Shown: positions 51,653-55,196, counted from the first letter of the stretch. The stretch: 64,000 nt of DNA from Nitrososphaeria archaeon (GCA_963752255.1 CAVVXT010000002.1:1-64000), one strand, 5' to 3'. Numbers and translations are program-made. The notes: generated from the letters alone by a model not told the origin.

Positions 51653-52144
51653 TTAGCTCCTTGACGATTTGGTTAGAACACCAGATTTCACGATAGCCAA
51701 GACTAAAAAATACCCTACAGCGTTCATTGAAATTATTGAACCCAAGAAGACTCCGAGGAACCCTACTTCAAGAGGAACTTTGAAAAGCACAGCCAAATAG
51801 GAACCGACGATGCTTGAGACTATTATGTTCTGTGCAACGGTGGCAGCGAACCTAGAACCAGCGAAGTTTTTGGAACCAATTTTCCAGCCGATATATGCAG
51901 CGAGGAAGTTTGCTATCGAACCTCCAATGATGTCGATGTAGCCTAGACCGCCATATAGGTTTGCGACGACATTCGCTAACGTCACTCCTAAGACCGCAGG
52001 CATTCCAAACACGATGGAGAGAGGAATCAAAGCGTCTGCAATTCTCACCTGGAAAAGCAGAAAGCTGATGGGAGCGAGGAGAATAACGCCTATGGCATAC
52101 AAAGCGGCGATAATGGATCCTAATGCTATCTTTCTGGTTTCCAA
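51653..52144 (-). CDS. queT: QueT family (7-deazaguanine precursor) ECF S component
   Basis: IAALY, APISF..FQVRIADAL, GVTLANVVAN, G.IDIIGGS. Confidence 0.88.
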   Translation of the reverse strand: METRKIALGSIIAALYAIGVILLAPISFLLFQVRIADALIPLSIVFGMPAVLGVTLANVVANLYGGLGYIDIIGGSIANFLAAYIGWKIGSKNFAGSRFAATVAQNIIVSSIVGSYLAVLFKVPLEVGFLGVFLGSIISMNAVGYFLVLAIVKSGVLTKSSRS

Positions 52145-52212
52145 TCTAATACCTCCCCACCGGGGTTTCTATAGCGGAACGGTGAGAAGCTCGATCACCC
52201 GCTAAATAGTGC
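52145..52212 (-). ncRNA. Structured 5' leader of queT, candidate preQ1-II-like riboswitch
   Basis: Stems UAGCG/CGCUA and GGUGA/UCACC with loop UCGAGCUUC; CCCC-GGU-GGGG hairpin overlapping SD GGAGGU; TATA at 52241-52250. Confidence 0.5.
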
Positions 52213-52263
52213 ATCTTCAGGTTTCTATTCTTCAGGCTTCTATAAATAAAGCTTTTTCCACCG

Positions 52264-52671
52264 TTAACTTATTTTCCCAAGCAAATCTACGACCTCACCC
52301 ACAGTTCTACAGATTTTGATTAGTGGAACTTCCAACATGAGATTTACATCTTCCATCCCTGAAAAGGTCCGGTGATCCGTCTTAAGCCCAACAATAGGCT
52401 TATCCAACGCCTTCGCATAACCCATTTCATACGCCACGCCAGCGTCCACTTCTACTCCGTCCAGAACTGATAATATCACGTCGCACGTCTTTAATGCCGA
52501 GATGTCACCTTCGTAGATCGCCTTCTTCTCTTTGTGAGTGCCTTGTTTAATGAAAGGAGCTTCTTGGGCAAGCCAGACCTCAAACCCGTTCTCTCTCAGT
52601 CTCTCGGCTATTTTAGAATTGAACTCTCGCTCAGCCTCGCTAAACAATGGCGCAGCAAGAAAAACTTTCAT
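52264..52671 (-). CDS. Nucleoside 2-deoxyribosyltransferase/N-glycosidase family protein
   Basis: FLAAPLFS.AE, IYEGD, DG..VDAGVAYEMGYA, NLML. Confidence 0.88.
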   Translation of the reverse strand: MKVFLAAPLFSEAEREFNSKIAERLRENGFEVWLAQEAPFIKQGTHKEKKAIYEGDISALKTCDVILSVLDGVEVDAGVAYEMGYAKALDKPIVGLKTDHRTFSGMEDVNLMLEVPLIKICRTVGEVVDLLGKIS

Positions 52672-53198
52672 TCCTGCAAATCACCTCACTCTGCATGAGC
52701 AGCAATATAAATAAATACACTCATCCATTATTACTTTGTTCCTCAAATTCCTTTGGCACTTTGCTCTAGAGCACGCGTAAGAAGTCACTATTTGCATCTT
52801 GTTGAACTATTTTACAAATGGCTTGAATAGTTTGACTTAACCTCTCTGCCCTCTTTTTCCCTTCCGGTCGTACAAAATGTGAAATTGGAACCAAAAGGAT
52901 TTGTTCCACCATCTGAGCATCTCCTCTAATCTCCAAGTATACACCGTATGTTTCTGCATCATTTTTTGTTACTTCTGCTTCAAGAATGTGCTGCCTCGGA
53001 ATTATTAGTAATTCGTCGCTAAGCCATATACCCTACAAATTTTTCACAGAATTTTCATAATAGAGAAGAGTAATAACGTAGCATGAATACGAATCTTGTC
53101 TTTTCATAACACTTGCGCGTTGAACTTCAAGATTTAACCTATTTAGAATACTATTTCTACGGTTGCATATCTTTATATGACAAAAGTGATAAAAGCAT

Positions 53199-53702
53199 TT
53201 AGGAAGGCTTTAAACGGCTTTCCATCGTAGGATGCACAACATTATATAGTGTGTATGCTATCACGGAACCTAAAAGTGCCTGCAGAATGTTCCATGGAAG
53301 TTCCGCGAGAGCTCCTCCGATGGCGAAAAAGTAGCTTTCGAAAACAAAGTAGGAGGCTATCATGAAAAATCCTCCCAGCGGGCCTGAACTATAGGCTAGA
53401 AGCTTTGACTCCTTATAGAATCTCATAAATATCAAACCCACAATAAGACCTTCAATACCCTTAGCCACGAATGTGACTGGAGCGTAGAAGGAGTACCCTG
53501 AAAGAATGTCTGCTAGAGAGGAGCCTAGGCCTCCTGTTATCAGGCCCACGTAGGGGCCGAAGAGCATGCTGACCAATATTACTCCTGCATCGCCGAAGTT
53601 GAAGTATCCTTGTGTCGCTGGAATTGGTATTTTGAATATGATCGTCATTACAGTAACTAGCGGGATCATCACACTAACGAGGGCCAGTGTCCTTACTTGC
53701 AT
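53199..53702 (-). CDS. ECF transporter S component, PdxU/HmpT-like (vitamin B6 candidate)
   Basis: IPIPATQGYFNFGD, GGLGSSLADILSGY..YAPVTFVAKG.EG, E..WNILQ. Confidence 0.8.
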   Translation of the reverse strand: MQVRTLALVSVMIPLVTVMTIIFKIPIPATQGYFNFGDAGVILVSMLFGPYVGLITGGLGSSLADILSGYSFYAPVTFVAKGIEGLIVGLIFMRFYKESKLLAYSSGPLGGFFMIASYFVFESYFFAIGGALAELPWNILQALLGSVIAYTLYNVVHPTMESRLKPS

Positions 53703-53748
53703 AGGCTAATCATCGGAAAACAAGGGAAACAAACATATATAAGTAATA

Positions 53749-53762
53749 GCCTATATATAGGC
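53749..53762. promoter_or_regulatory. Perfect 14-bp palindrome GCCTATATATAGGC in the divergent promoter
   Basis: Next to a shared TATA (53734-53743); a half site ATAGGC overlaps the ECF start codon. Confidence 0.7.
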
Positions 53763-53774
53763 CTAGTAATAAGT

Positions 53775-55196
53775 ATGACGAATGACATCTCATTAAGGTG
53801 CACAAACTGCGGTGCAAGCAGTAGCTTTGATATTAATAGAAAACTATGTGACAGATGCGGAAACGGCCTTACTATAGAAATGGAGCGTACTCATGATTTT
53901 GAACCGCAGCAAAATGCGACTGGAATATGGAAGTATGCTAAGATATTACCAAGCTTAGATGAAGGATTTCGAATTTCCTTAGGGGAAGGCAACACGAGCC
54001 TACATGAAAGCAAGAAAACCAAAGATGAGATAAAGGTTGACAGACTATTGTTTAAGGATGAAACAGTGGAGCCAACAGGATCTTATCTAGACAGAAGCTC
54101 AGCACTATTCGCATCCATAGCCCTTTGTTTAGGGTACAGAAAGGTTGTCACGTATTCTACGGGAAATCTTGGTGCCTCACTTTCGGCGTATTCTTCCAAG
54201 GCAGGATTAAGGACACTGGTCTACATCAAACCCGGCATCGACCTCGGAAAACTCTATCAGATGATAGCGTACGGAGCAGAAGTGAAGGTTGTGCAAAATT
54301 TTAAGGAAAAATGGAAAGGATTAGAGGACACGGTTGTAGCTACGGAATATGACCCACTAATAAATGAAGCCAAGAAAACAATTATGTTAGAAATCTTCTA
54401 CCAGCTTAACAGAGATTTACCGGACTACATAATACTTCCTATGGGAGAGGGAGGCCTAGTTTATTCAACCTTTAAGACATTAAGTGAGCTCAAGACACTC
54501 GGTAAGAACAAAATTTACAGGACAAAAGTTGTTGGCGTACAGCCAGAGGGCTGTGCTCCTATAGTGAAAGCGTTTGAAAAAGGGCTGGACATCGTTGAGC
54601 CTGAAGATGGCCCTAGAACCCATATATTTGACCTAAGCGTGGCAAATCCTAAATTTGGAAATGCAGCTTTGAAGGCGATAAAGGAAACTAAAGGCGTCGC
54701 TATCTCGATTGGTGGAAACGAAATAATGGATGCCACTACCGCCTTAGCTGAAAACGAAGGCATTCTTGCTGAGCCAGCTGCCAGTCTAACCGTAGCTGGG
54801 CTGATGAAACTGAGAAAGACAGGAGAAATAGGAGGTGACTCTACGGTAGTCTGCGTCATAACCGGAAGCGGCCTTAAAGACCCTAGACTAATGAAAGAGA
54901 TAGCGCTTAGAAGATCAAACTTAGGCTCCTTGATAGAAGAGTTGAGTGGGGGTATGCTGTTAGGTGATACTAAACTAGCGACTCTGAAATTACTGTCTGA
55001 AAAAGATATGTACGGTTATCAGATTTGGAAGGAACTAAGAGAAAAACATGGTGTCGGCCTAAAGATTCCTACTGTCTATCAACATTTGTCTGAGCTAATC
55101 AAGGAAGGCTATGTAAAGAAGATTGAGTCAAAGATGGTTTCAGGAAGAAAGAGAGAATACTATTCATTAACGGATAAAGGAAGAGCTCTAGCTTAA
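53775..55196 (+). CDS. Threonine-synthase-like PLP-fold domain lacking the Schiff-base Lys, fused to a PadR-type winged HTH
   Basis: Zn ribbon, SLGEGNT, PTGSYLDR (canonical PTGSFKDR), STGN, EPA, TGSGLKD; C-terminal MYGYQIWKEL..IPTVYQHL..Y.LTDKG. Confidence 0.85.
   Translation: MTNDISLRCTNCGASSSFDINRKLCDRCGNGLTIEMERTHDFEPQQNATGIWKYAKILPSLDEGFRISLGEGNTSLHESKKTKDEIKVDRLLFKDETVEPTGSYLDRSSALFASIALCLGYRKVVTYSTGNLGASLSAYSSKAGLRTLVYIKPGIDLGKLYQMIAYGAEVKVVQNFKEKWKGLEDTVVATEYDPLINEAKKTIMLEIFYQLNRDLPDYIILPMGEGGLVYSTFKTLSELKTLGKNKIYRTKVVGVQPEGCAPIVKAFEKGLDIVEPEDGPRTHIFDLSVANPKFGNAALKAIKETKGVAISIGGNEIMDATTALAENEGILAEPAASLTVAGLMKLRKTGEIGGDSTVVCVITGSGLKDPRLMKEIALRRSNLGSLIEELSGGMLLGDTKLATLKLLSEKDMYGYQIWKELREKHGVGLKIPTVYQHLSELIKEGYVKKIESKMVSGRKREYYSLTDKGRALA

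Follow-up and report, generated by a model that had tools for sequence, protein, structure and literature searches.

An RNA motif in the leaders of archaeal queT genes is a candidate riboswitch class for a 7-deazaguanine base

The leader of an archaeal queT gene and the known preQ1 riboswitches

Riboswitches are cis-acting sensors of metabolites or ions that reside in mRNA leaders, and those reported in archaea include sensors of TPP and of fluoride. To our knowledge, few riboswitch classes occur in archaea, and these are shared with bacteria. The described systems that most resemble the RNA motif reported here are the three preQ1 classes, for which all representatives named in Table 1 of a 2024 review are bacterial, and the main text of this review uses the word 'archaea' 0 times (PMC11625349). 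In preQ1-II RNAs (RF01054, the COG4708/queT motif), the Shine-Dalgarno (SD) sequence forms a helix with nucleotides from the loop of a hairpin on its 5′ side, such that ligand binding hides the SD and turns the transporter off (PMC11625349). PreQ1-III RNAs (RF02680) carry the anti-SD in the loop of hairpin P4, where it forms an aSDS-SDS helix with an SD located in the 3′ tail, and preQ1-I RNAs (RF00522) form an H-type pseudoknot composed of S1, a loop and S2, with an A-rich strand after S1 and with SD nucleotides in the second helix (PMC11625349).

A first-pass annotation of a 64,000-nucleotide stretch of DNA from a Nitrososphaeria archaeon (hereafter called the window) proposed that a preQ1-II-like structured leader, with a predicted length of about 70 nt, precedes a queT gene. 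The elements named in that proposal (a TATA box, two stems and a CCCC-GGU-GGGG element over the SD) are all present at 52145-52250 when the minus strand is read, directly 5′ of queT (51653-52144, minus strand), which codes for an ECF-type S component (PF06177, E 2.9e-26). The TATA-like box of the queT promoter, TTTATTTATA, is located at 52241-52250, which is 38-47 nt 5′ of the closing base of the outer stem, and the spacer between box and stem is approximately 37 nt. The outer stem, called P1 below, pairs AGCGG (52199-52203) with CCGCU (52173-52177). On the basis of pair counts in 100 copies, its 5′ strand extends over 52198-52203 (a closing A, GCGG and then a G capable of forming a G·U pair) and its 3′ strand over 52173-52178 (U, CCGC and a closing U). 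The inner stem is formed by GGUGA (52195-52199) and UCACC (52181-52185) flanking the loop UCGAGCUUC; in the window copy this P2 region (52181-52197) holds a stem of shifted register, GUGA/UCAC, with a 9-nt loop.

The 3′ portion of the leader contains an A-rich linker, AUAGAAA (52166-52172), and a CCCCGG block (52160-52165) that is separated by two bases from the SD, GGGAGG (52152-52157). The CCCC-GGU-GGGG element (52155-52165) overlaps the SD, and the TTG start codon of queT (52142-52144) follows the SD at a distance of 7 nt. All of these features lie on the minus strand. The CUUC of the hairpin loop is complementary to the SD, as originally claimed, and the full complementarity amounts to 9 bp, wherein the anti-SD CUUCUCACC (52181-52189, the 3′ part of the P2 region) pairs with 52153-52161.

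Membership in the preQ1-II family found no support in searches with existing models. The 64-kb window contains 0 gathering-level matches to Rfam 15, and when all 4227 Rfam 15 families were searched at E≤10 against positions 52050-52350 and against a canonical copy of the motif from another locus (L013), no preQ1-I, -II or -III model (RF00522, RF01054 and RF02680) matched. The only family with an E≤10 match over 52050-52350 is Ysr209, which at 14 bits we attribute to chance, as we do the far sub-threshold matches of mir-4449, Afu_513 and whalefall-1 to L013. Genome-wide, RF01054 (gathering score 47 bits) gave nothing at E≤1 while its Lactococcus lactis positive control scored above the cut-off. 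RF00522 (gathering score 39 bits) did not match the queT leader and gave only two 17-bit matches elsewhere, on contig C10, with its B. subtilis control likewise above the cut-off.

The archaeal motif resembles preQ1-II in its position upstream of queT and in the engagement of the SD by a hairpin-loop tract, but no model match was obtained and the architecture is different. A closing stem, P1, of 5-6 bp surrounds the hairpin, the internal loop is conserved, the linker is A-rich and the CCC(C)GG block is invariant; the conserved nucleotides also differ from those of preQ1-II. The genome searches we ran found the motif only in archaea, and its ligand is putative. With preQ1-III the motif shares a hairpin-loop anti-SD (on P2), but preQ1-III RNAs are about 100 nt long and have a separate HLout aptamer domain, whereas the archaeal motif spans 57-66 nt and part of its anti-SD lies in the hairpin's 3′ strand. 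The combination of P1, an anti-SD:SD helix and an A-rich linker after P1 is compatible with the topology of preQ1-I, although the latter is far more compact (45 positions in the Rfam model) and the archaeal motif has long loops and an optional internal hairpin. No description of a riboswitch upstream of archaeal queT was found in the full-text literature, a body of text that mostly excludes subscription journals and supplements.

A conserved structured motif that recurs before archaeal queT genes

Single-sequence folding is uninformative for the window leader, and significance comes from comparison with relatives. Folded alone, the leader has a minimum free energy (MFE) of -22.3 kcal/mol (z -0.09), and 78 of 200 shuffled sequences fold equally well or better. 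QueT homologues were detected in 16 of 61 related genomes by using the window protein as the query, and a conserved block is present within 200 nt of the inferred start codon in 11 of 17 upstream regions inspected, and further upstream in one more (L015). A pattern derived from the motif and applied to the genomes of 185,579 species, with each species represented once, yielded 25 matching stretches, all titled as archaeal metagenome-assembled genomes (9 Bathyarchaeota/Bathyarchaeia, 12 Nitrososphaeria-type, 2 Odinarchaeia/Odinarchaeota, 1 Thermoproteota and 1 'uncultured archaeon'). In this respect the motif, with 25 of 25 matches in archaea, differs from the TPP and fluoride classes that are shared with bacteria.

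RNAalifold, applied to alignments (A1 and A2) of 26 distinct copies, proposed P1, P2 and a small hairpin, P3, and the covariance model R1 was then built. R1 recognizes the window motif at 52150-52207 (minus strand) with 63.3 bits (E 1.1e-13), the window copy being one of the 26 from which the model was made. Matches to R1 were assembled into A4, which holds 100 copies and omits motif duplicates and the canonical copies L065-L071 and L073, and into A5, which holds 27 further copies; all 127 rows are distinct. A conserved structure, with compensatory changes, recurs before queT in many archaea.

Covariation provides strong support for the helices. Considered together on A4, P1, P2 and P3 leave 94.2% of cells paired, compared to 85.1 ± 0.5% in shuffled alignments, and their covariation score of 0.240 (0.076 when shuffled) is reached by 0 of 500 shuffles, with slid controls at 0.034 or below. 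Because the alignments were fitted to the model, the copies were collected with a 26-seed model and the sequences are related, pair counts and invariance lean toward the model; read in this light, the closing pair of P1 in A4 (n=100) is GC in 63 copies, AU in 16, GU in 6, UA in 6, UG in 4 and CG in 1, and is broken in 4, whereas the fourth pair is GC in 84 copies and CG in 16 and is broken in none, which represents a clean GC-to-CG swap in 16 copies. In P2, the first covarying pair is UA in 58 copies, GC in 23, AU in 4, CG in 2 and GU in 1 (12 broken), and the second is GC in 64, UA in 19, GU in 8 and CG in 4 (5 broken). Clean double swaps in the helices are hard to explain without the structure. 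The pairs of P3, between CCC and the first GGG of the SD, are almost invariant in A4 (the third pair is lost in 22 copies), and consequently P3 is neither supported nor contradicted by covariation.

Several single-stranded positions are invariant as well. All 100 copies of A4 agree at the U that follows P1, at a G and a U preceding the 3′ strand of P1, at four A residues of the linker and at two C residues of CCC(C)GG, and in the CCCCGG block the third C is kept in 98 copies and the GG in 96, all of these figures carrying an ascertainment bias in that every copy was found with R1. Unpaired and invariant bases are typical of aptamers. The CCCCGG block can form the small hairpin P3 with the first G residues of the SD, and duplex predictions pair its GG with the CC located 5′ of GUU. 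Two other partners for the CCCC were considered and ruled out. Pairing with CGGG in the 5′ strand of P1 is at odds with the 16 copies in which P1 carries the G-to-C swap, since their CCCC is unchanged, and pairing with a G-run in the 5′ strand of P2 does not fit copies that lack such a run, L150 and L157 among them.

Among 63 loci with 60 nt of flanking sequence, A/T content peaks at 68-90% at a distance of 26-36 nt 5′ of P1, which suggests that a TATA box is present family-wide; the window box, at 38-47 nt, is more distant. Given the position of this peak, the transcript should begin just 5′ of P1, and the motif would reside at the very 5′ end of the mRNA. Riboswitches are generally recognized as conserved structured 5′ leaders with covariation and invariant unpaired nucleotides, and each of these characteristics is found in the leader family.

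The pairing that masks the SD is also conserved. Across the family, a CCUCC(C) tract complementary to the SD is found in the P2 loop and along the 3′ strand of that hairpin. Six anti-SD:SD pairs, counted as a pseudoknot with P1, leave 96.2% of cells paired and give a covariation score of 0.174 versus 0.071, which 0 of 500 shuffles reach; the terminal pair is broken in 25 of 98 copies. Column counts of this kind understate the signal because the register shifts in some lineages, and a direct reading reveals lineage-specific double changes (CCUUCC/GGAAGG, CCUCCU/AGGAGG, CCUCCA/UGGAGG, UCUCCCA/UGGGAGA, CCACC/GGUGG and UUCCGAC/GUCGGAA). Moreover, duplexes between cognate inner and tail segments average -16.45 kcal/mol compared to -14.96 kcal/mol for non-cognate combinations (0 of 2000 permutations reach this value), and a contiguous helix of at least 6 bp can form in 120 of 127 copies but in only 61 of 127 once the letters of the tail are shuffled.

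Part of this pairing is to be expected without any switch, since complementarity is inherent between an SD and any CCUCC tract that resembles the 16S one. The invariant core of the anti-SD:SD helix therefore proves little, and we place weight on the matching variants that depart from the canonical SD. Taken together, the covariation, the compensatory variants and the contrast of cognate with non-cognate duplexes support the early suggestion that the hairpin loop pairs with the SD, with a pyrimidine tract in and beside this loop taking part. The anti-SD:SD helix is more universal than P2, because 10 of the 127 copies, that of the window among them, have a P2 weaker than -2 kcal/mol. A proposed extension of the helix through the base 3′ of the anti-SD was rejected, as copies compared by eye do not exhibit covariation of this base with the linker.

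The window copy departs from the canonical form in its P2 region. Its anti-SD:SD conformer (-15.6 kcal/mol) and its P1-enforced conformer (-15.0 kcal/mol) are nearly isoenergetic, and the SD-masked conformer is the MFE structure of the leader. When aligned with its closest relative (L040), the leader is nearly identical outside of P2, and by eye we count eight differing positions in the P2 region. The shifted stem GUGA/UCAC arises from three of these changes, and the canonical register of P2 is broken. By the same comparison, two C-to-U changes retain wobble pairing with the SD, and a change in the linker lengthens the anti-SD:SD helix to 9 bp. The window copy is probably a remodeled member of the family that is still functional, and in an alternative reading the shift in P2 may represent decay.

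A metagenome pattern scan for a second example of this P2 variant gave 54 loci, one of them a weak R1 match (22.4 bits), and none was a second example. The weak match, L228 (13449-13504, minus strand), lies on a GC-rich, bacterial-looking contig, and its hairpin resembles the window P1 with the shifted P2. This hairpin precedes a gene for a MAPEG-like membrane protein (named by eye). The likeness is forced by the search pattern and is probably due to chance, as is a PK-BYV match to the same locus. A look-up of sequencing runs listed none of RNA, and four DNA runs yielded two peat contigs, approximately 97.5% identical, that span the window leader; they have no listed differences in 52145-52215 and six in 52227-52257, and the lower divergence of the leader is not significant given that about 1.4 differences would be expected there by chance.

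Genes and genomes associated with the motif

The proposal that the structured leader is specific to queT is supported: the leader is conserved, and 117 of 124 downstream open reading frames (ORFs) scanned with Pfam encode QueT (PF06177). In A4, QueT was found in 93 of 100 downstream ORFs, 92 of these above the curated cut-off, and one of the 93 (L125) is frameshifted. The seven exceptions include L063 and L082, whose ORFs are recognizable by eye as QueT with frameshifts or an odd start. In A5, all 24 ORFs scanned encode QueT; among its 27 rows, L056 and L060 were left out and the gene of L165 runs off the contig.

Two other kinds of genes are preceded by the motif. One locus (L064/L171, 4300-5004, minus strand, genome G050) has the motif before a radical-SAM gene whose five best NCBIfam matches are all to QueE, with scores of 59-91 bits that fall below the equivalog cut-offs; this single locus accounts for the QueE association, and its QueE-like gene is the only biosynthetic gene found under the motif. 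At four Bathyarchaeia loci (L113/L172, 107-805, as well as L138, L147 and L149), the motif precedes a gene for a membrane protein of at least 229 aa, which at L113 is 251 aa by the longest reading and which matches no Pfam or NCBIfam family. A language-model atlas places the L113-type protein among ECF S-component clusters with a score of 0.94, a result we treat as a lead only, and the protein may be a new transporter that shares its ligand with QueT. Genes of a single pathway or for a single ligand are generally expected downstream of a riboswitch, and the genes found here (117 of 124 for QueT, 1 QueE-like and 4 ECF-S-like) conform to this expectation.

Across the class, the start codon is mostly located 2-10 nt after the SD. 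In four Nitrososphaeria loci (L005 1468-1986, L007, L011 and L012), the queT frame lacks any ATG, GTG or TTG on the way from the SD to the conserved N-terminus of QueT, and in this group an in-frame ATT resides 10 nt after the SD. This ATT may be the start codon of queT in these four loci. At L195, L197, L199 and L200, the ORF called from the motif has 47-52 residues ahead of its QueT domain. In these copies the 3′ strand of the helix may not include the SD of queT, and may instead lie over a start codon or an ORF located upstream.

R1 was used to survey archaeal genomes in samples that overlap and that include related, nonindependent genomes, and in these it matched 15 of 151 from the window's class (8 of 9 in family f1, 6 of 9 in f2 and 0 of 81 in f5), 90 of 151 from the Bathyarchaeia class (to which genome G151 belongs), 28 of 151 from the window's phylum and 11 of 151 from the Asgard phylum (that of the Odinarchaeia genome G152). 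Matched genomes mostly have one copy, and a few have two. The window's own genome is among the latter, with a second, canonical copy on contig C14 (186872-186928; L002 1301-1357, L049) that scores 75.6 bits. On the 3′ side of this copy are a short ORF resembling the N-terminus of QueT, a 152-aa QueT paralogue 115 nt downstream, and then a second QueT-like ORF. The C14 locus looks rearranged, and the same layout is present in a genus-mate (G001, L015).

The own genome encodes a TGT gene and a PTPS/QueD-family gene, but the only match to the QueC family is at 25 bits and QueE has no match in this assembly of 94.7% completeness. The presence of TGT together with no QueE match and the low QueC-family score suggests that the archaeon depends on imported preQ0. 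The TGT match (C19:192542-193503) consists of two overlapping pieces in different open frames, which may reflect a frameshift or an assembly error in the gene for the archaeosine transglycosylase.

Upstream of the leader in the window is a gene of the nucleoside 2-deoxyribosyltransferase family (52264-52671, minus strand; PF05014, E 1.3e-24), whose product may act on a 7-deazapurine nucleoside. The order of transferase-family gene, leader and queT is present in three genomes, namely that of the window, G151 and G251. The cassette comprising these three elements (51654-52709) has 82.8% nucleotide identity to the Bathyarchaeota genome G151 (L040), with synteny kept. In contrast, the product of a neighboring gene (53697-55196) has 76% amino acid identity to a family-mate of the window's lineage but only 31% to G151. 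The proximity of the cassette to G151, while its neighbor remains near its own lineage, suggests that the cassette was laterally transferred. The neighboring gene (plus strand) encodes a PALP (threonine-synthase-like) domain fused to a C-terminal PadR winged-helix domain, and its start overlaps the start of a divergent gene for an ECF riboflavin-type S component (53199-53702, minus strand).

Proposed mechanism and competing explanations

The leader family is almost certainly a real, conserved structured RNA, and it is likely to be a riboswitch of some kind. We also favor, though with less confidence, the more specific view that the window leader is a remodeled-P2 member of an uncatalogued archaeal class and functions as a riboswitch that turns translation off in response to a 7-deazaguanine base, with preQ0 the most likely one. 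The control of the QueT transporter gene, and in one instance of a QueE-like gene, points to a 7-deazaguanine ligand (preQ0 or preQ1). We place preQ0 first, as it is the base that archaea insert into tRNA on the way to archaeosine (PMC5372724).

In the architecture of the class, P1 of 5-6 bp encloses a conserved internal loop (G-U-G-R / C-C-G-U-U) and the hairpin P2, whose loop and 3′ strand bear the CCUCC-type anti-SD, and these are followed by the A-rich linker, the invariant CCC(C)GG block and the SD. P1 and the anti-SD:SD helix together have the topology of an H-type pseudoknot in which the A-rich/CCC strand follows P1, and P2 would compete for the anti-SD. When ligand is present, the pseudoknot, which is the presumed bound conformer, would be stabilized, the SD would be hidden and the QueT importer would not be made. 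When ligand is absent, the 5′ strand of P2 would take up the anti-SD and the SD would be freed. Riboswitches located before importers or biosynthetic genes normally switch expression off in the ligand-bound state, and we propose OFF-switch logic on the basis of this usual behavior. By analogy with preQ1-II, the motif probably acts through a ligand-stabilized pseudoknot that blocks translation. The same consequence, wherein the ligand-bound RNA hides the SD and turns off the transporter, is described for preQ1-II and is expected here as well (PMC11625349).

The assignment of a ligand derives from gene context, the substrate of archaeal QueT is itself putative, and four of the regulated genes encode an ECF-S-like membrane protein without a named family. 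Hence, the motif could be a genuine cis-regulatory RNA that senses something other than a 7-deazaguanine, such as another small molecule recognized by an S component, a protein or a tRNA. We consider this rather unlikely, given that the association is almost exclusive to QueT, that a QueE-like biosynthetic gene lies under the motif at one locus, that the window's genome has TGT without a detectable QueE, and that no conserved gene for a partner protein adjoins the motif except the transferase-family gene in 3 genomes. Still less probable is a leader that functions without any ligand as a constitutive attenuator, a 5′ structure that stabilizes the mRNA, or an RNA thermometer that masks the SD. 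Such a device would account for a conserved core of pairing that amounts to masking of the SD by a complementary tract, and for the fact that the masked conformer is the MFE structure in the window. A mere SD mask would not need some 12 unpaired positions that are invariant across two phyla, however, and neither the confinement of the motif to one functional class of genes, with one or two matches per genome, nor the covarying alternative hairpin P2 fits well with this explanation.

Descent from a known preQ1 class (II, or else I or III) would account for the control of the same gene family as class II, for the A-rich linker after P1 as in class I, and for the placement of the SD in a pseudoknot helix, as described for preQ1-I type III, preQ1-II and preQ1-III (PMC11625349). 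We nevertheless regard it as very improbable that the motif is a diverged member of these classes, in view of the different conserved blocks and the different P1/internal loop/P2 layout, the failure of all three models to match either copy at E≤10, and the genome-wide searches that returned nothing for RF01054 (with a functioning positive control) and only 17-bit matches elsewhere for RF00522. Least probable of all is the notion that the conserved block acts as DNA, in the role of a transcription-factor operator, and not at the level of RNA. Its location just 3′ of the TATA box is a frequent binding place for archaeal repressors, but the compensatory changes preserve helices and include strand-specific G·U pairs (GU in 6 and UG in 4 copies at the P1 closing position, GU in 8 copies in P2) that would be meaningless in duplex DNA. 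Furthermore, the motif is 57-66 nt in length and non-palindromic, and its 3′ end is always at the SD of the gene that follows.

Our preferred reading is that of a preQ0-responsive translational switch, and the motif is best described as a candidate for a new riboswitch class so far known only from archaea. We give roughly even odds to a broader proposal, in which these RNAs constitute the first archaea-only riboswitch class: a preQ0-sensing pseudoknot that would govern the salvage of the archaeosine precursor (by QueT and a second, ECF-S-like transporter) and locally its synthesis (by QueE). The motif is present in approximately 60% of the sampled Bathyarchaeia genomes and is shared with non-ammonia-oxidizing Nitrososphaeria and with Asgard archaea; in this proposal, the class would be either ancient in the TACK/Asgard lineage or spread by transfer of small leader-plus-transporter cassettes like that of the window.

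If validated, the class would represent a fourth, structurally distinct solution to the problem of sensing 7-deazaguanines, and it would place the supply of the archaeosine precursor under RNA regulation. It would also provide a functional label for archaeal QueT and for an unnamed family of ECF-S-like transporters, and would supply archaeal genetics with a compact translational switch that responds to a ligand. Finally, the motif would mark those uncultured Bathyarchaeia, Nitrososphaeria and Asgard archaea that depend on preQ0.
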